From IMG/VR virus record IMGVR_UViG_651053023_000006: a stretch of DNA of 19,487 bases; one strand, 5' to 3'. This document shows positions 1 to 14,646 of the stretch, one piece after another. Origin of the DNA: a virus. Taxonomy: Duplodnaviria > Heunggongvirae > Uroviricota > Caudoviricetes. The notes under the pieces are model-generated. The model did not search any database. It saw nothing but the letters and a program-made list of their open reading frames with translations, and was not told where the DNA came from. How positions within the stretch are numbered: the first letter of the stretch is position 1; each line of letters opens with the position of its first letter. The position numbers were made by a program, and so were the translations under genes.

Positions 1-1119
1 TCAAATAACCAACTTAACCCATTCCTGACCTCGAGTATCGTTATAGCGATCGGTGGTTGCCTGGACTTTATGTCCTAGTAATGTTTTTGTATCGATACCC
101 TGTGCACGGTACAGCCGTTCTGATAGAGAGCGTTGTTCATGAAATGTTGGCGGAGTTTTTCCTGCTGGTGGAATTATCCCAGCCAGATCCCGTGCTTTGG
201 CAAAGTAGTCGCTCAGGTTGTCTTTACTCATCGGCTTCGGTTGTTTCTGGTGCCGACTATGGATTAGATATGGACTTAATATTCTGTCTCGGCACCCATC
301 AATAACTTCTTTTAACGTTATCCCAATGGCATCACAGCGTAGTGTAAGCGGTAACGCCAGACGCATTCCGGTTTTTCCCTGGGTGATATGCAAATGTTCG
401 TTCCACACATCTGAAAAACGCATGTGGTAAATGTCATCACGGCGCTGACCAGTAACAATCGCAAGAAGCATTGCGTTACGGATAAAGTGTTTTTCTGGCG
501 TTGCGTTGTAAATTTTTTGCCAGTCTTCCAGGGTGAGTCTGGCTCTGGTTACTTTAGGGATCGGTTTACGGGTGGCCTCCGGAGGATTCCATCCAGGAGG
601 AACTTCCCCTGCATGCTGTGCTTCTTTATAAATATCAACCCATAATCCACGATTTACTCTCGCTGTGCTGACCATGTCTTTATCCAGCCACTCATCCAGT
701 ATTAATGCAAAGTCTCTTACTTCCAGTTCTTTCAATGGGTGGTTTCCCAGACGGGAAACCAGATATGCAGCCATTCTGGCTTTTTCTTTGTGAGTTGTAG
801 CTGCAATATCTCCATTTTTCAGTCGCGTGTCCTGTATTTTCAGATATCGATCAACCCATGCCTTTAATCTGATACCCCGACGCGTTGTTGCTGACGGACT
901 TTCATCAATTTTGCGCATGAAATATTCAGCCTCTGCTGCAGCTATTCGCTGATTGGCTGTGGAAGCGATTTTTTCTGCCTTACCTTTGTCTGTTCCGAGC
1001 CCGTGAAATTTTCCAGTCACAGGGTTTTTATACTGGTAGTAAACTCTGCCAGTTCTGCGATCAAATTTTTCGTAAAGTCCGGCTACGTCAGTGCTGTTTT
1101 TTCGTGGCCTCGGTGACAT
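1..1119 (-). CDS. int: Phage integrase, tyrosine recombinase (lambda Int family)
   Basis: 372-aa ORF with ATG at 1117-1119 and stop at 1-3. The C-terminal region (PPTFHEQRSLSERLY, LLGHK, RYNDTRGQEW) parallels the catalytic region of lambda Int as I remember it. Start overlaps the upstream xis-like ORF, as in lambda. Confidence 0.9.
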   Translation of the reverse strand: MSPRPRKNSTDVAGLYEKFDRRTGRVYYQYKNPVTGKFHGLGTDKGKAEKIASTANQRIAAAEAEYFMRKIDESPSATTRRGIRLKAWVDRYLKIQDTRLKNGDIAATTHKEKARMAAYLVSRLGNHPLKELEVRDFALILDEWLDKDMVSTARVNRGLWVDIYKEAQHAGEVPPGWNPPEATRKPIPKVTRARLTLEDWQKIYNATPEKHFIRNAMLLAIVTGQRRDDIYHMRFSDVWNEHLHITQGKTGMRLALPLTLRCDAIGITLKEVIDGCRDRILSPYLIHSRHQKQPKPMSKDNLSDYFAKARDLAGIIPPAGKTPPTFHEQRSLSERLYRAQGIDTKTLLGHKVQATTDRYNDTRGQEWVKLVI

Positions 1120-1357
1120 GAGTTAAAATCTCCTTCAGTGCATCATCATCGCCAGTATGAATTTCCGGCGCAATTCCTGTTTCACCAGGTCCAACAAATA
1201 CTGCTCGGCGATCTATCAGCCAACGCCCACGAATTTTTTGTGGTCTTGGAACGATGTATCCTAGTTTTCCGTATTTCACCAGGGTAGTGTTTGTTATTGG
1301 GAGACTGAACCGTTTTGGCTTCCACTCATCGAGCGTTATCAGGTACTGTTCGCTCAT
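1088..1357 (-). CDS. xis: Excisionase (Xis-like)
   Basis: Small ORF directly upstream of int and overlapping its start. The track start at 1366 is GTG; I prefer ATG at 1355-1357, which has GGAG about 9 nt upstream. N-terminus (YLITLDEW...) resembles lambda Xis (YLTLQEW...). Confidence 0.6.
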   Translation of the reverse strand: MSEQYLITLDEWKPKRFSLPITNTTLVKYGKLGYIVPRPQKIRGRWLIDRRAVFVGPGETGIAPEIHTGDDDALKEILTHVTEATKKQH

Positions 1358-1418
1358 GGCTATCACTCCGGAACGCGCCAGTTGCAGAATACCAACGACA
1401 ACTGGCGACGGTTGAACA

Positions 1419-3284
1419 TTAAAAATCAGCCTGACTCGGGATCAGTTTTTGCCAGATAGCTGAAACGTATTTTGCCTGGTAACGAGCGTCATCAAGTGCA
1501 TTATGGCGCTCACCTTCGAATGGAATAGCCGTTCTGGCATCGAAGTCTATGGCTTTCCCCAGCTCAACGATTGTGCGTACATCGCGATCGTTGTAGTAAC
1601 GCCACGGGCAGGGGATCCCCTGCCGTTCGTATGAACGGCGCAAAATCGTGTTGTCGAAGTTGGCTCCATTTCCCCAGACCTGAACAAAAAATTCACCGGA
1701 GTTTTCGTCGATAAATTCTCGCAATTGTAACAGTGCATCATCTAACGGGATTTCATCGGTCATAATGGCAGATTGCGCTTCGCGTGATTGCTTCAGCCAC
1801 CATTTAATGGTGTTCCGATCAATGACTCCGCCAGCAGTTTCCAGATCGATAGTCTTACTAAATTCCGGTCCCATATCTCCGGTTTGCGGATCGAAAAATA
1901 TTGCACCTATTGAGATAACCGGGGCATCAGGATTTTTTCCCATGGTTTCGAGGTCGATCATTAGATGGTCACACGTCCTGCTGGTGGATGTGATTTCGTG
2001 ATGACCGTTCATCTTAATTGAGTGATCTGCCGCCTCGCCAGTTTCATTATCGCTGGCGTGGTCCTGAGCGCTGCCAGCATTCTCCTTGTGTGGATGTTCA
2101 GCGCCTTCCATTTTCTCCGGATCGTTTTCCTGAACTTCAACCTGATTCTCTTCATCGAATGTTTCCTGGTATGTTGCGTCGCCCATCACCGCGCCACAAT
2201 CAGGGCAGTTGCCGCCACCGCTCTGACCGCAGGCGGTGCAGACTTTTTCCGCTTCCTGTTGCGCTACTGGCTCAGGTTGTTTTGTTTCCGGCTCGTTTTG
2301 TAACGCATTTGGGCTGTTTTGTTCCGCTTTCTGGTCGTTCTGTTCCGTTTCTTGCTGGTTCTGGTTCACAGAATCGCGGGTTTCAATCCCCTTCACCCAT
2401 TTCGGATCATTCGGGTCGCTAATCCCTGCAACAAATTCTCCGCGAGAGGCAGCAAGCAGTTCATTAGCGTCAGGCTGGCTGATATTGGCTGCCTGCATAA
2501 TTTTGTTTACTTCGTCAGCGGTAACTTTTACCGGCTCTGGTTGTGCGGTCGTGTCAGATGCACCAGTATTTTGTTGTGAGCCTGAGTATGTACCGTTTTT
2601 GCGGGCAAAATATTCTTCTTTCGTGATTTCAGTAGCCCCTGCAGCCAGCGCCTTATTCAGACCAGAAAGTTTGTTTGCACGACCATATTTTTCGCCATCC
2701 TTATCGGTGAAAAGGAAGTAGAACGGCCCCTCACGCTCTACAGATGGTTCAGTTTCCAGCGTGCTTTCATTTTTTTGGGTATCAGATACTTCAGTTTCCA
2801 CTGCATCAGTTTGTGCTGCTGACGGCTGGAGAATATCAGCAGCGTTCTGGTCTGTTTCTTCATCCTCAAACACGCCCTTTGTCGCCAGGTATTCAGTGAT
2901 GTATTTGTTCAGTGCTACGGGATCTTTGTGAATGTCGATCGGACGCTCACGGACAAGGCCAAAAATAGTCTGACGGTCGTAGCGGACGGCATCGGGTTGT
3001 TTGCGCATTGATGCGGAAATGCGCTTCCAGTCTTCGCGATCTTTGTCGATAACTTCATTGTTTCTGGCTAACCAGCAACGCGCGCCAGATTCGGTTTTAA
3101 ACGTTTTGCTTTTGGTATATGTCATCGCGGTGAACGTACCGTCCTGGTTGGGGAACACGCCGCATACCAGAGATTCGTTGTTGCCAAGATCGATAGTATC
3201 CATGCTGACCTCATTTCCCCTTAACGCCGGGGTAGCGGAACAAAAACCTGCTGCATAGTTATTAAAGTTGAACCCTGCCGTCAT
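1419..3284 (-). CDS. Phage exonuclease, C-terminal DnaQ-like DEDDh 3'-5' exonuclease domain with acidic N-terminal region and CxxC...CxxC zinc ribbon
   Basis: 621-aa ORF. C-terminal motifs read in the translation: IDLETMG (Exo I), NGANFD (Exo II), HNALDDA (Exo III). Zinc ribbon [16 protein letters not shown]. Start is ambiguous: ATG at 3282-3284, or ATG at 3201-3203 which has GAGG 7 nt upstream. Confidence 0.7.
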
Positions 3285-5202: not shown

Positions 5203-6150
5203 ATGAGCAGCAAGCTTCATGGTCTTGTCTGGGAAGGGTGTGCCTTCACCGGCATGATCTTATCCAGGGTGGCAGTTATGGCTCGCCTTGCAGATTACAG
5301 CAATGACGAAGGTGTGTCATGGCCTGCAGTGGAGACCATTCGTCGTCAGATTGGGGCAAAGAGTGAATCAACGGTTAAAGCTGCGATAGCAGAACTGGAA
5401 AAGAACGGCTGGCTGACGAAGGAGGAACGTAAGGTCGGTGGGCGTAATGAAAGCAATATCTACCGTCTTAATGTGGAAAAACTCGAAGCAGCAGCAGCGG
5501 CAGCGCGTGAGGCATATAAACCGAAAAGAAAAATTAGCCAGGCAAAAAATGACCCGTCAAATATTGACCCCTCAACGGTTGACCCGTCAAATTTTGATGG
5601 ATCAACCGTTGATAAAAAACAGCCGGTTAGGGGGGCGATGGTTGGCCCCGATCCGTCAGTATTAAAACCTGATCCGTCAGATAAAAGATCTTTTCGTCCG
5701 GACGCTTCGCAACCGGACCCGCAGACGGCTGAACAGGATTTTTTAACCCGACACCCTGACGCGGTTGTGTTCAGTGCGAAAAAACGCCAGTGGGGCAGCC
5801 AGGAGGATTTAGCGTGTGCGCAGTGGATCTGGGGACGAATCGTGAGTCTTTACGAGCAGGCTGCCAGCGATGATGGCGAAATCATGCGACCGAAAGAACC
5901 CAACTGGACTGCATGGGCCAATGATGTGCGCACAATGCGGATGCTGGATGGCAGAACTCACAGACAAATTTGCGAAATGTTTGGTCGGGTACAGCGGGAT
6001 CCATTCTGGGTAAAAAACGTCATGAGCCCGTCAAAGCTTCGCGAAAAATGGGATGAGCTGGTTATTCGTCTGGGGCGTTCGCCTGTACAGCGTTGCGTGA
6101 ATCACATTTCTGAACCGGACACCGAAATTCCGCCGGGATTCAGGGGGTAA
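5203..6150 (+). CDS. Replication initiator, lambda O-like, with iteron-encoded linker
   Basis: 315-aa ORF with GGAG RBS. N-terminal winged-helix-like segment. The central peptide repeats (DPSNIDPSTVDPSNFDGSTVD...PDPSVLKPDPSD) are encoded by DNA iterons. It is followed by a DnaC-like loader gene. Confidence 0.7.
   Translation: MSSKLHGLVWEGCAFTGMILSRVAVMARLADYSNDEGVSWPAVETIRRQIGAKSESTVKAAIAELEKNGWLTKEERKVGGRNESNIYRLNVEKLEAAAAAAREAYKPKRKISQAKNDPSNIDPSTVDPSNFDGSTVDKKQPVRGAMVGPDPSVLKPDPSDKRSFRPDASQPDPQTAEQDFLTRHPDAVVFSAKKRQWGSQEDLACAQWIWGRIVSLYEQAASDDGEIMRPKEPNWTAWANDVRTMRMLDGRTHRQICEMFGRVQRDPFWVKNVMSPSKLREKWDELVIRLGRSPVQRCVNHISEPDTEIPPGFRG
5548..5690. repeat. Iteron array inside the O-like gene (candidate ori)
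   Basis: Repeated TGACCCGTCAA-type units (ATGACCCGTCAAAT, TTGACCCCTCAAC, TTGACCCGTCAAAT, GGATCAACCGTTGAT, CGATCCGTCAGTA, TGATCCGTCAGAT), each with partial dyad symmetry, followed by an A/T-richer stretch. Confidence 0.5.
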
Positions 6151-7712: not shown

Positions 7713-8168
7713 ATGGCAAAAGTATTTACACAGGAAGAGCGAGAAAAAATTAAAGGGCAGGTTGTTGAGCTGGTACGCCAGAGCGGGCGCGAGACGTTAC
7801 GGCAACTGGAAGCGAAAACTGGTGCGACAAGATATCTGATGAGTGTTATCGCCAGAGAGCTGGTTGCCAGTGGCGATGTATATAACTCTGGCTACGGGTT
7901 ATTCCCGTCTGAACAGGCTCGTAAGGACTGGCAAAACGCCCGCAAAAAACTCTCAAGGGCAAATCTGAAGAAACCATCTGTGGTTGATCCGGACCTTATC
8001 TGGTCATTACCAGACGGAGAAATGCGTCGCTACGATAGGCGCCTGAATATAATCTGTCGCGAGTGCCGGAAGAGCGAAGCTATGCAGCGTGTACTGGCAT
8101 TTTACCAGAATGGTTTTCGAGAGACATTCGGTGAACAGGTTGTGCATGAGGGAAATCATGGCGCTTAG
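7713..8168 (+). CDS. Hypothetical phage protein (N-terminal HTH-like segment)
   Basis: Track ORF trimmed to ATG 7713, which has a GGGGAGGG RBS. 151 aa. No catalytic motif recognised. Confidence 0.55.
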   Translation: MAKVFTQEEREKIKGQVVELVRQSGRETLRQLEAKTGATRYLMSVIARELVASGDVYNSGYGLFPSEQARKDWQNARKKLSRANLKKPSVVDPDLIWSLPDGEMRRYDRRLNIICRECRKSEAMQRVLAFYQNGFRETFGEQVVHEGNHGA

Positions 8169-8278
8169 GCAATTGTGTAGACGCGTTGACGGTCGAAAGC
8201 ATAGGAGGGTTGATTGATCGTTCTAGTTATGCTGTCAGAGCGAAAGCGCAGGAACTGGGTATCAATAGGATGTTAAGA

Positions 8279-8287
8279 GGGGGGGGG
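8279..8287. repeat. G9 homopolymer tract separating two ORF fragments
   Basis: Nine consecutive G read directly in the sequence. The upstream fragment ends ...INRMLRGGGL and stops at TAA 8291-8293. The downstream frame encodes YNQSKKHPQSDIELVRKLHQCGVPRRDIAVKREMSLGMINQYVYFDRRAHEV and stops at 8445-8447. Confidence 0.9.
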
Positions 8288-8595
8288 TTATAACCAATCA
8301 AAAAAACATCCGCAAAGCGATATTGAGCTAGTGCGGAAGCTTCATCAGTGTGGAGTTCCCCGCCGTGATATCGCTGTAAAACGCGAAATGTCCTTGGGCA
8401 TGATTAATCAGTACGTTTATTTCGACAGGAGAGCGCATGAAGTTTGACATCTAGACAACTGGGGGAGCGCTGAAAACGTTCTTAATTGATGTTGGATTCG
8501 CTTTACATACTGAACTGTTTGGCTGAAAGACACGGTAGTATCACCAATCAAGGTGCTTTTGATAAACGCTTGTGTGTTTGTTTTTTAATCCATTG

Positions 8596-8624
8596 TTGAC
8601 AACTAGGTTAGTTTTCCATATCAT
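8596..8624 (+). promoter_or_regulatory. Candidate sigma70 promoter for the ParA-like gene
   Basis: TTGACA (8596-8601), 17-nt spacer, TATCAT (8619-8624), about 30 nt upstream of ATG 8655. Confidence 0.5.
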
Positions 8625-8654
8625 CAATAAAAGTGTAAAACTAATGGTGGCGAT

Positions 8655-9701
8655 ATGACTAGTGAATCAAATGTTAATGCTCTGATAGAGCGTCAATTCG
8701 AAGTTGCTGACGGTAATGTAAGAAGTCTTAATTTGCCGAAATATGATAAATATACAGTATGTAATTTACGGGGAGGCATTGGTAAGACATCTTTAACTTT
8801 TAATCTGTCATATTTGGCGGATAACGCATTAATCGTGGATACGTGCCCGCAAGGAAATTTATCATATTTTTTTGACAATAATTATGCATCTTCGTCTAGC
8901 ACAACTGCAAATGACCTCTTAATGCCTTATTTTGTTCCAGGGCTTGGATTTGCAACGCGTGCTGCAAAGCTAGTATCATCAACTAATGCTTGGTTTGCGG
9001 GCAAGAATAACTATTTTATTCAATCTGATAGTCAACTTTATCTTCTACCTACGCAAATGGCGAATGCTCTGGCTCAAGCCAGAACAATTTCTGGGGCTAC
9101 TCAGCAGGTTGTTATTGATACAATTCTTTTTTCTCTGAAGAAAGAAATAGCCAGAGAAATGGTTGAAACTGGTACTACAAAAGCGTTAATTGATACATCA
9201 CCTTTTTTCTCTGGAGCGACGCATTTATCTTGGCATGCAACAGATGCTTTAATAGTTCCAGTGAGGACAGATCAGCAATCGATTAATTCATTAAGATTAC
9301 TTATTGATACTCTGACTAAACCAACATCAGAATTTAGAAAGATAATGCCGTCTGATGGCCATACACCAAAAATTCAGATGGTGGTTATTACCCATTGCGG
9401 ATGGTCAACAGTGGCAGGAGCAAGGAATAAACCAAATCAACAGACAAAAATGTACATCGAAGCTGTAAGAGAGGTAATTCGACAAAATATTAGTAATTTT
9501 ACAACAGATGATCCTAATAATCACATTGTGATTCTTGATGATTTTCTGGGTAGTGGCAGAATGTCAAGTGCTAAGTCTAAACCATTAGAGTTGTTAAATC
9601 CAGGAGATGCAATGACTGTGAATAGAGTTAGGACATCCGTGAATTTATCTGTTAACAAAATAAAAAATGAATTAAAGTTCATTCACAACTCCATATGGTA
9701 A
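8655..9701 (+). CDS. ParA/MinD-superfamily P-loop ATPase with atypical deviant Walker A (Arg replaces the signature Lys)
   Basis: 348 aa. Motifs: YTVCNLRGGIGKTSLTFNLSYL (deviant Walker A, R for K), LIVDTCPQGNLS (compare ParA LLIDLDPQGN), ALIDTSPFFSG ... DALIVPVRTDQQSINSL (Walker B region). About 30-aa N-terminal and about 60-aa C-terminal extensions. Region is visibly AT-rich. Confidence 0.8.
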   Translation: MTSESNVNALIERQFEVADGNVRSLNLPKYDKYTVCNLRGGIGKTSLTFNLSYLADNALIVDTCPQGNLSYFFDNNYASSSSTTANDLLMPYFVPGLGFATRAAKLVSSTNAWFAGKNNYFIQSDSQLYLLPTQMANALAQARTISGATQQVVIDTILFSLKKEIAREMVETGTTKALIDTSPFFSGATHLSWHATDALIVPVRTDQQSINSLRLLIDTLTKPTSEFRKIMPSDGHTPKIQMVVITHCGWSTVAGARNKPNQQTKMYIEAVREVIRQNISNFTTDDPNNHIVILDDFLGSGRMSSAKSKPLELLNPGDAMTVNRVRTSVNLSVNKIKNELKFIHNSIW

Positions 9702-9858
9702 ATGACATTTTATTTGAATAATCTGGATTGATAATTATTGTTACATTAATTGTTATTAATTCTAAATAATCCTATCGTTCTTCAGGATGAGATAATTTAT
9801 ATTTATTTGTGTTGTGATTTTTTGAATTTATTTAGGTTTATGAACTGTTTTAGATGAA

Positions 9859-9978
9859 ATGAATCATGAATACGAAATTGTTGCGGTACTGATAACGAGG
9901 AAAGACCTCTGCGAGGTACGAATCCGAACCGGCCAGACGGAGGTCGCTGTCTTCACAGCTTACGAACCTGAGGAGTAA
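9859..9978 (+). pseudogene. hok/gef-family type I toxin remnant, 5'-truncated
   Basis: 39-aa frame MNHEYEIVAVLITRKDLCEVRIRTGQTEVAVFTAYEPEE. The C-terminal 28 residues match the conserved Hok/Gef/RelF tail (LTRKxLCEx[RH]xRxGxxEVAxFxAYE). The N-terminal transmembrane helix is missing and no hydrophobic stretch is encoded upstream in any frame. GC-rich hairpins and a terminator follow, as in hok mRNA 3' regions. Confidence 0.6.
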
Positions 9979-10046
9979 GAGACCAGGCGAGGGAGAAATC
10001 CCTCGCCACCTCTGATGTGTCAGGCATCCTCAACGCACCCGCACTT

Positions 10047-10069
10047 AACCCGCTTCGGCGGGTTTTTTA
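10047..10069 (+). terminator. Rho-independent terminator (hok-remnant 3' end)
   Basis: ACCCGC-TTCG-GCGGGT hairpin (10048-10063) followed by T6. A strong GGCGAGGGA-GAAA-TCCCTCGCC hairpin lies upstream at 9986-10007. Confidence 0.7.
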
Positions 10070-10116
10070 TTGGTTGACAAAATTATGAATATGCACCAAT
10101 ATCTTGGTTGACAAAA
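10070..10116 (+). promoter_or_regulatory. Candidate promoter/operator with two direct TTGGTTGACAAAA repeats
   Basis: TTGGTTGACAAAA at 10070-10082 and 10104-10116. Each contains TTGACA. Located between the terminator and the start of the downstream two-gene operon. Confidence 0.4.
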
Positions 10117-10151
10117 GTCGTTTTTTGCACGGATTAGGCGGAGAAGTGTCT

Positions 10152-10745
10152 ATGCAGAACCATCCATTCCCTTGGGAGTTCTTTCCTGAGTTAACAGAGG
10201 AGCGTTTAACCATTATAGCTGAGGAGTTGCTCAGGATACAGGATATTACTCATGAGTTATTGTCATCGCCCTATGATGATAATTACACTCGTGGTGGTTG
10301 TACATTTGGGCGTCAGCGGCAGGCGTTGCTACAAATGTGCGTACGAAAGACATATGACTGGTTAAGACTACTTAATCCTGGCATGGATCTTACGTTTTCA
10401 ATTGGGAATGTCCCTATTCGTTTCTTTACTGATGACGCAGATAACCCCAAGAAACGCGGTTTTTTCAAAAGAAATGATGCTGATCGACTCTTTGAGTCAG
10501 AGGAGACTACTCCAACTATGCATCGCTTTGTGGTTGAAAAGCCTGAATTTGAAGGCGAGGGTGGTAGAGTCATTTTTAATGGCTATAACGTGTTTGGTGA
10601 GATCGTGTCAACTTGGACATATGGTGCGGACCGTGTTGTTATGCTGAACTCTGTCGATGATGTACCTCCAGCACCGGTACCTATCGAACTAGAACCTATC
10701 AGTGCGTCTAAGACTGAGAAGGAAAAGAAACAAAATAGCAAATAG
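10152..10745 (+). CDS. Hypothetical protein (197 aa), first gene of a two-gene operon
   Basis: Track ORF starts at TTG 10104; I prefer ATG 10152 with GGAG about 9 nt upstream. AT-rich codon usage. No family motif recognised. Stop TAG at 10743-10745 is 10 nt before the next start. Confidence 0.65.
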   Translation: MQNHPFPWEFFPELTEERLTIIAEELLRIQDITHELLSSPYDDNYTRGGCTFGRQRQALLQMCVRKTYDWLRLLNPGMDLTFSIGNVPIRFFTDDADNPKKRGFFKRNDADRLFESEETTPTMHRFVVEKPEFEGEGGRVIFNGYNVFGEIVSTWTYGADRVVMLNSVDDVPPAPVPIELEPISASKTEKEKKQNSK

Positions 10746-10755
10746 TGGGTGAAAT

Positions 10756-11877
10756 GTGTTTAACGGTACTAATTTAAGACTTGCTCGTCTGTATCACGAG
10801 CTATCTCTGGAGCAGGTTGCTGAGAAGGTTGAAAAAACACGCCAGTATGTACAGCGACTGGAGTCTGGTTCAGCTACTCCATCCCCAGAGCTTATAAATA
10901 AATTAGCCGAGGTTTTGCGCGTGAAGCCCGCCTTTTTCGAAGGGCAGGAACATTCTCCTGTTAATGAAGAGATTGTACATTTTCGTAAACGCGCCTCGAC
11001 AAGGATGTCAACGAAGCTATCAACACTCGCTAAGGCTGAGTTTTATCGTCGTTTTATTGATGTATTTGAAGATAACCTTAATTTGTCACCTGTTCGATTT
11101 CCTGAATTTCGTGTCCATACACAAGAAGATATCGAGCGAGCGGCAGAAAAATGTCGTATTGAGTGGGGCTTAGGCTTTGGCCCAATTGAAAATATGACTC
11201 GCCTTGCCGAGAAACTTGGGGCGTTTGTTACTTCATTTGACTCCGTTTCGGATGAAGTAGATGCACTGTCTGTTCCTCTACGAAGGCCTTTTATTGTTCG
11301 AAATACAGCTAAAAATTCACCTTGTAGGCAACGCTTTGATATTGCTCATGAGGTTGCCCATTTGATTCTTCATGAAGGAATTTCTACTGGGGATAGATTA
11401 ACTGAATCCCAGGCAAACCGTTTTGCCTCTGCTCTGTTGCTTCCCAGAACGTCGATGGCGAAATATTTTCCAAGACCTGTGGGGGGGAGGATAAATTGGC
11501 AGGGACTAAGCCAATTTAAGTTGACATGGAAAGTAAGTAAGGCTGCCATTGTTTACAGGGCTCATCAATTAGGACTTTTGACTGATGAGCAGTACAGAAC
11601 TGCATTTATGGGGTTGAAACGGAAAGGGGAAGCTATTGATGAAAAAGAAGATTATCTAATCCCTCATGAGCGTCCTGAGTTATTCCGTCGGGCTTTATCG
11701 TTTTTATTTGAAGAGTTAGGATACGACCCACAGCGTATAGCTGATGAAATGGATATAGAAGTGGACATTTTTTATGAGTTAGTAGGAGATGATCTTCCTG
11801 CGGTTCATGAACTGCCAGGAAGTGGTGATGTTGTTTCACTACAATCTTACCGAACTCTTAGAGGCAAAATTCACTAG
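10756..11877 (+). CDS. XRE-family HTH fused to ImmA/IrrE-type zinc metallopeptidase (COG2856-like)
   Basis: GTG start at 10756. N-terminal HTH (LRLARLYHELSLEQVAEKVEKTRQYVQRLESG...ELINKLAEVL). Central HEXXH motif (FDIAHEVAHLILHE) in the arrangement typical of ImmA/IrrE peptidases. 373 aa. Confidence 0.75.
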   Translation: MFNGTNLRLARLYHELSLEQVAEKVEKTRQYVQRLESGSATPSPELINKLAEVLRVKPAFFEGQEHSPVNEEIVHFRKRASTRMSTKLSTLAKAEFYRRFIDVFEDNLNLSPVRFPEFRVHTQEDIERAAEKCRIEWGLGFGPIENMTRLAEKLGAFVTSFDSVSDEVDALSVPLRRPFIVRNTAKNSPCRQRFDIAHEVAHLILHEGISTGDRLTESQANRFASALLLPRTSMAKYFPRPVGGRINWQGLSQFKLTWKVSKAAIVYRAHQLGLLTDEQYRTAFMGLKRKGEAIDEKEDYLIPHERPELFRRALSFLFEELGYDPQRIADEMDIEVDIFYELVGDDLPAVHELPGSGDVVSLQSYRTLRGKIH

Positions 11878-11881
11878 GCAT

Positions 11882-11904
11882 AACCCGCTTCGGCGGGTTT
11901 TTTG
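11882..11904 (+). terminator. Rho-independent terminator, identical hairpin to 10047-10069
   Basis: ACCCGC-TTCG-GCGGGT followed by T6, starting 5 nt after the stop at 11875-11877. Confidence 0.7.
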
Positions 11905-14570: not shown

Positions 14571-14646
14571 GGCCCTTTAGCTCAGTGGTGAGAGCGAGCG
14601 ACTCATAATCGCTTGGTCGTTGGTTCAAACCCAACAGGGGCCACCA
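14571..14646 (+). tRNA. tRNA with CAU anticodon, Ile2 (lysidine) type by similarity to ileX; tRNA-Met not formally excluded
   Basis: 76 nt including CCA. Acceptor stem GGCCCTT/AGGGGCC. Anticodon stem AGCGA/TCGCT with loop CTCATAA (U33, CAT, A37). T arm GTTGG-TTCAAAC-CCAAC. Closely resembles E. coli tRNA-Ile2 as I remember it. Confidence 0.9.

Follow-up and report, generated by a model that had tools for sequence, protein, structure and literature searches.

A hokD-type remnant, very probably dead and moved by recombination, at the right end of a ParA-like cargo block in an Escherichia coli lambdoid prophage

[quoted passage not shown] Relative to hokD, our locus keeps codons 19 to 51, the stop codon, the hairpin of the 3' untranslated region (UTR), the fbi element, and the terminator, but it lacks codons 1 to 18, the start codon, and the ribosome-binding site. 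Relative to hok/sok, it keeps the 3' half of the mRNA, with the terminator and the fbi element that in an intact relative (L002) pairs with tac, but tac, ucb, and mok are absent, as are the Sok gene and its target. E. coli has many disabled hok loci. Pedersen and Gerdes are said to have described, in 1999, inactivated chromosomal hok loci in E. coli K-12, reportedly including a Qin hokD without a sok region. Our locus resembles these in that a rearrangement has disabled it. At K-12 hokD, too, the Rfam sok model found no match, but a full 51-codon open reading frame (ORF) is kept there behind relE, whereas in our locus the cut runs through the ORF, at codon 19. Moreover, the locus can be set beside the morons and mosaic boundaries of lambdoid phages. 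It sits between two exchangeable cargo units, one ParA-like and the other RosmerTA, in the region from the replication genes to Q, and its conserved sequence coincides with recombination breakpoints, as at lambdoid mosaic boundaries. Unlike a moron, however, it is not a cargo gene and reads as a scar and a homology patch between cargo units.

The locus lies in a stretch of 19,487 nucleotides, analyzed whole and called the window below, that is part of an E. coli lambdoid prophage. Its closest record is the porcine enterotoxigenic strain ETEC4090, with 99.3% identity over 75%. We consider it highly likely that positions 9877-9978 are a dead, 5'-truncated hokD-type remnant whose junction with the DNA to its left is older than the prophage and was moved by recombination. 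The features are collected in Table 1.

Table 1. Features of the hok remnant and its surroundings, in window coordinates
Feature	Position	Strand	Basis
ParA-like cargo cassette, left of the remnant	8584..9703	+	Limits from L012-L017
AT-rich spacer in place of the hok 5' half, 175 bp	9702..9876	+	GC content; always joined to the hok remnant where found
Chimeric 39-aa ORF: 6 junction-derived codons (MNHEYE) in frame with the hok remnant	9859..9978	+	ORF list
Hok remnant proper: hokD-type codons 19-51 and TAA stop	9877..9978	+	Homology start, L002 alignment, RefSeq pseudogene
Junction-proximal zone, read as coming from another hok allele	9877..9892	+	Mismatch lists; L009 and L025 identical here
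Hok 3' UTR: perfect 9-bp hairpin 9986-10007, fbi element ~10023-10043	9979..10046	+	Inverted repeat
Predicted Rho-independent terminator of hok mRNA, AACCCGC-UUCG-GCGGG and U6	10047..10068	+	Terminator scan (10047-10064, T-run to 10068)

How much of Hok is left can be read from the chimeric ORF (9859..9978, plus strand), whose translation is MNHEYEIVAVLITRKDLCEVRIRTGQTEVAVFTAYEPEE. Residues 7 to 35 match the Pfam profile HOK_GEF (PF01848) with an E value of 2.8e-16 and 59.3 bits, against a cutoff of 22 bits. The match spans only positions 14 to 42 of the 42 in the profile, and the intact HokD of L002 spans positions 1 to 42. The C-terminal domain with its LCE motif, one hallmark of Hok/Gef proteins, is present, and ...TRKDLCEVRIRTGQTEVAVFTAYEPEE is the same as in HokD. 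The other hallmark, an N-terminal transmembrane helix in a protein of about 50 amino acids, is missing together with profile positions 1 to 13, and six hydrophobic residues (IVAVLI) are all that is left of the old helix. At the DNA level, window positions 9877-10150 are 97.8 to 98.5% identical to loci annotated as hokD in other E. coli strains, with E values of about 1e-130, much more than chance would give, and 9877-10068 is 95 to 98% identical to the hokD of E. coli strains 401651, 504239, and K-12. The Hok/Gef tail and the 5' truncation of a hokD-type gene that a first-pass annotation of this DNA had proposed are thus borne out by the profile and the alignments. The same annotation had the transmembrane N terminus replaced by AT-rich DNA encoding no hydrophobic segment. 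The replacement is real, as the spacer has a GC content of 21.7% against 55.7% for 9877-10068 and the upstream frames contain stops, but the hydrophobic IVAVLI of the helix survives. Because codons 1 to 18, which held most of the helix, are gone along with the start codon and the ribosome-binding site, no Hok toxin is possible; a hok/sok system is likewise out of the question. We note that the locus is already known. RefSeq labels the equivalent span in strain 99-3165 (L001, 10228-10329) a pseudogene, "Hok/Gef family protein, incomplete, missing N-terminus," and the locus is an ordinary hok pseudogene recognized in public annotation.

What the locus has lost is seen by comparison with L002, where a complete hok/sok region lies 5' of hokD and the Rfam sok model (RF01794), for which L002 is the positive control, scores 103.9 bits at L002 5800-5949. 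In the window, that model has no match in 9500-10300 at an E value of up to 10 and none window-wide at the gathering score. Alignment with the intact relative has the whole hok 5' region exchanged for other DNA, with neither tac/ucb nor the mok frame and its ribosome-binding site in the window. The tac pattern had 0 matches in the window with up to three mismatches, and the fbi element is therefore orphaned. In L002, tac and fbi form a duplex of -35.7 kcal/mol that closes the predicted full-length fold, whereas the best duplex of the window fbi with the upstream 500 nt reaches only -16.3 kcal/mol. Gone, in sum, are the promoter, tac/ucb and mok, Sok with its target, and the beginning of the toxin gene, from its ribosome-binding site and start codon through 18 codons of the transmembrane helix. 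Two ways in which a working locus might have been overlooked had been raised at the outset, and both came back empty. One was an intact Hok rebuilt across a frameshift. We reject it because all three forward frames of 9702-9858 contain stop codons and because no further HOK_GEF positions were gained from a 35-aa ORF (9750..9857), whether by itself or joined to the remnant, or from a second hydrophobic stretch in a different upstream frame. The other was that the AT-rich DNA contains an antisense element like sok. We reject it on the lack of an Rfam sok match and on promoter-like sites at the level of shuffled sequence (3 found against 2.7 expected). The sole minus-strand promoter-like site in the spacer faces away from the remnant.

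Where hok begins is a matter of a few codons. When 9650-10150 was compared by megablast with 5,426 complete E. coli genomes, hokD-annotated loci aligned rightward from window 9877 or 9884, and no hok allele in those genomes matched left of 9877, including in more sensitive searches around the junction. Position 9877 aligns with L002 6001, which is nucleotide 55 of its hokD ORF (5947..6102), and the cut therefore lies just after codon 18. Similarity to hok ends at 9876/9877, inside the interval of about 9860 to 9880 in which the breakpoint had been expected. The first few codons are unusual, however. The remnant differs from L002 hokD at six positions, four of which (9882, 9883, 9887, and 9892) crowd the junction-proximal zone, with two in the other 176 nt. 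The breakpoint might be placed instead at 9892/9893, with 9877-9892 being donor DNA that resembled hok and served as microhomology. Unbroken identity to hokD begins only at 9893, T9882 and A9892 were absent from every intact allele retrieved, and the exact 23-mer at issue (ATTGTTGCGGTACTGATAACGAGG) occurs in no intact allele among viral contigs. We nonetheless regard this placement as unlikely. One of the four changes is silent and three exchange one hydrophobic residue for another (IVTALV to IVAVLI), as a working hok allele would show, and G9883 and T9887 are also found in an intact hok allele of Salmonella (P0012/L030; VVVAVLVTRKDL). Moreover, 13 interspersed matches in 17 positions are far above chance and an unusual form for microhomology. 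Because the changes keep hydrophobicity and two of them occur in the intact Salmonella allele, we read 9877-9892 as what appears to be genuine hok sequence from another allele, with the breakpoint at 9876/9877.

How widely the junction is spread bears on its age. The same junction of ParA-like block and truncated hok was found in 13 of the 5,426 E. coli genomes, in six IMG/VR contigs, and in two metagenome contigs, one of them identical in sequence to the IMG/VR contig from which L009 derives. It also occurs in prophages of Salmonella enterica, where a 39-aa protein (P0001; MNHEYEIVAVLITRKDLCEVRIRTGQTEVAVFVDYVSEK), recovered by a protein search with a 44-aa in-frame extension of the 39-aa ORF, is present on 15 contigs. 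With the window and its RosmerTA cargo as the reference, the Salmonella enterica contig L025 (GCA_012451725.1) has no mismatch over 8400-9954 and 16 differences from 9955 on, and continues downstream into a gene for a 59-aa protein and a Fic gene. Contig L009 is about 99.8% identical over 7755-9933, has 14 to 15 differences in about 140 nt from 9934, and has no cargo downstream, only a Qin-like continuation. The mismatch-free stretch of L025, about 1.55 kb long, covers the ParA-like gene and the spacer and continues across the junction for 78 nt into the remnant. Identity of 100% over that length implies that the ParA block would have passed between Salmonella and E. coli prophages, and so between genera, very recently. 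One junction is joined to three hok 3' alleles and three right-hand neighbors (window, L025, and L009). Because it is found with different 3' alleles and different downstream cargo, the junction appears to predate the arrangement in the window and to be an older fossil spread by crossovers inside the remnant. The window remnant itself is, judging by its mismatches, a mosaic, with the junction-associated allele reaching at least 9892 and canonical hokD beyond it; all alleles are identical within 9893-9933.

The ParA-like module might instead have entered the relBE-hokD operon of this very prophage, an operon arranged as in Qin, and have deleted relBE and the 5' part of hok in situ, in which case the edge of a recent acquisition by this lineage would be marked by the remnant. 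In K-12 Qin, relE is directly upstream of hokD, and the ParA-module junction is rare in E. coli, at 13 of 5,426 genomes. The relatives point elsewhere, however. L002 and L003 share the replication and DUF977 region with the window on the left and everything from 9877 or 9884 on the right, including the same downstream RosmerTA genes. Between these common flanks they have nin-region genes and the 5' half of hok/sok, and the window has a disrupted small DNA-binding gene, the solitary ParA-like gene, and AT-rich flanks. Upstream of hok in L002 and L003 there is no relBE, the place being taken by nin-region genes, and the full hok/sok 5' region is there with Sok; relE abuts hokD only in K-12 Qin. 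That Salmonella and L009 have the same junction joined to hok 3' alleles and downstream modules unlike those of the window also argues against an event in situ, and the clustering of four of the six hokD differences in 9877-9892 indicates that the junction-proximal part is not the canonical hokD allele of the prophage. An insertion into the prophage's own operon is therefore very unlikely. Two ideas of the first-pass annotation fall with it. The loss of a relBE-like pair is contradicted by the complete hok/sok 5' region and upstream nin-region genes of L002 and L003. Deletion of the hok 5' part by the ParA-like module survives in that the ParA gene with its AT-rich flanks takes the place of that part in comparison with the relatives, but the deletion was not made in this prophage, as the junction recurs in Salmonella and L009.

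We favor an older junction that has moved between prophages, a history most simply explained by one illegitimate join and later homologous crossovers in the conserved remnant. AT-rich DNA travelling with a solitary ParA-like gene would have been joined to codon 19 of a hok gene by illegitimate recombination. The join would have deleted about 200 nt of the hok locus, including the 5' end of hok mRNA, mok, Sok, the start codon, and 18 codons, and its product would have made neither a membrane-inserting toxin nor an antitoxin. The block of ParA, spacer, and truncated hok would then have passed from one lambdoid prophage to another in E. coli and Salmonella, and crossovers in the remnant would have linked it to different hok 3' alleles and downstream cargo. 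The crossover that produced the window would lie between 9893 and about 9933. The conserved 190 bp is probably also a homology patch for module exchange.

Whether the chimeric ORF does anything may be asked, as the three alleles (those of the window, L009, and Salmonella P0001) all have it open and starting with ATG, which leaves a small chance that its product is functional, for instance as a soluble C-terminal domain of Hok with a modulating effect on other toxins of the family. We think this highly improbable. The ATG at 9859 has no Shine-Dalgarno-like sequence ahead of it when 9840-9861 is read directly, and the ORF is for that reason probably not translated. The helix is down to six hydrophobic residues. 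Moreover, an open ORF is expected anyway in recent recombinants, in which each 3' part comes from a working allele, and copies so nearly identical say nothing about selection.

The structured DNA after the ORF belongs to hok. Stem-loops and a terminator had been noticed there and, after some hesitation over a noncoding RNA, ascribed to hok, and the 9-bp hairpin at 9986-10007 and the terminator at 10047-10064 agree with that. Fbi and terminator are both present, and 9979-10068 has 1 to 4 differences from the three intact hokD loci compared. The RNA of 9877-10075 folds at -79.6 kcal/mol, with a z score of -4.3 relative to shuffles. There is next to no chance that an IsrK-type small RNA is independently encoded at 9981-10068: Rfam isrK (RF01394) does match 9987-10068 (31.2 bits, E value of 8.7e-5), but this falls short of the gathering score of 50, a similar weak match (30.5 bits) lies at the 3' end of the intact hokD in L002, the true isrK of L002 (80 bits) sits elsewhere, downstream of Q, and the plus strand has no promoter-like site ahead of the 3' region. 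The isrK of Gifsy-1 lies between Q and an antirepressor-like gene, and hok is unmentioned in the paper that describes it (PMC4825925). We dismiss the match as a generic hairpin and terminator, and the structured region is the hok 3' UTR. On the subject of isrK itself, L002 10219-10418 (plus strand), just 3' of Q, matches isrK, C4 antisense RNA (67.9 bits), and the a1/b1 target of the latter (50.2 bits). In the corresponding part of the window, after Q, a tRNA at 14571-14643 gives the only Rfam match that the window has at the gathering score.

The block to the left of the remnant looks like mobile cargo. The ParA-like gene (8655-9701, plus strand) encodes 348 amino acids matching Pfam AAA_31 and PHROG 164 (ParA-like). 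The core of its cassette, 8584-9703, recurs in phage contigs L012-L017 at 82% nucleotide identity, with different neighbors and no adjoining hok. That homology stops at 9703, and the spacer from 9704 to 9876 is not common to them. In the E. coli genomes and the viral and metagenome collections, every occurrence of the spacer was with the same hok junction, and none was found in the phage and plasmid collections. No donor of the spacer without hok was found, as pattern scans of viral and metagenome sequences gave only contigs with the same junction and a scan of genome contigs with ParA gave only a relative of 59% identity. The ParA-like gene itself looks like mobile cargo rather than a partition gene. 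The ATPase is solitary, having no ParB-like partner, and the gene is present in only 13 of the 5,426 E. coli genomes. Genes about 70% identical to it are found on small Aeromonas plasmids, one of which also has a separate conventional parA. A known defense protein was considered and rejected, as PADLOC matches were weak only, with E values of 1e-4 or worse. To the left of the cassette, ORFs 8186..8293 and 8331..8447 (plus strand) when taken as a pair, are similar (74 to 78% DNA identity) to a gene for a small DNA-binding protein in P1/D6-like phage-plasmids. They are parted by stop codons 3' of a run of nine G residues (8279-8287), a run that has three fewer G residues in L009, and 8186-8447 is probably a gene disrupted at a slippery homopolymer.

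The separation of the ParA-like gene from its right-hand neighbor is a likely remaining use of the hok 3' end. A promoter-like site precedes the gene at 8596-8624 with 11 of 12 positions matching, and scans over 8400-10300 found no terminator-like site between 8484 and 10047, so that the one at 10047 is the first 3' of the gene. Because a strong promoter-like site is followed by no earlier terminator-like site, the predicted hok terminator at 10047-10068 probably ends ParA-like transcripts and shields the RosmerTA operon. RosmerTA (RmrT/RmrA) is an anti-phage TA defense family (PMC10440598). In the window it occupies 10152-11877 (plus strand), with PADLOC E values of 5.5e-93 for RmrT and 4.3e-201 for RmrA. 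RmrA combines Pfam HTH_3 with Peptidase_M78, so that the order of toxin and then antitoxin with a helix-turn-helix and an ImmA/IrrE-type peptidase is that of RosmerTA. The same module is also found next to intact hokD. The first-pass annotation took the remnant for the left edge of the acquisition, and this must be revised: it is the right edge of the ParA module. Just upstream of rmrT are two exact copies of TTGGTTGACAAAA, at 10070-10082 and 10104-10116, which may be an operator or promoter pair.

The terminator is also a repeated sequence. The 22-mer AACCCGCTTCGGCGGGTTTTTT at 10047-10068 has an exact second copy at 11882-11903, right after the rmrA stop codon, and a pair also flanks the unrelated cassette of the 59-aa and Fic genes in Salmonella (L025, 5190 and 6030); the cargo-free sites of K-12 and L009 have one copy. 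RosmerTA (1.8 kb) and the 59-aa and Fic cassette (0.84 kb) start at the same nucleotide after the hok terminator. Duplication of the terminator as a mechanism of cassette insertion is not supported, however. In a control scan of IMG/VR, 76 of 81 occurrences among the matches listed did not adjoin hok, and the contigs ranged from 30 to 67% GC. The 22-mer is a generic UUCG-loop phage terminator, and its repetition may be convergence. We think it unlikely that the conserved hok 3' end, with fbi and terminator, is a preferred anchor or insertion point that forms the left border of a lambdoid cargo slot in E. coli and Salmonella. If it were, terminator-targeted or terminator-duplicating acquisition of cassettes could be reflected here.

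The remnant is of little importance in itself but is useful as a landmark, since it shows the ParA-like cargo block to end on the right at 9876/9877. Ultimately, its history indicates that short conserved remnants act as crossover points for the reshuffling of defense cargo, such as the RosmerTA and Fic cassettes, in the part of lambdoid prophages that lies between the replication genes and Q.
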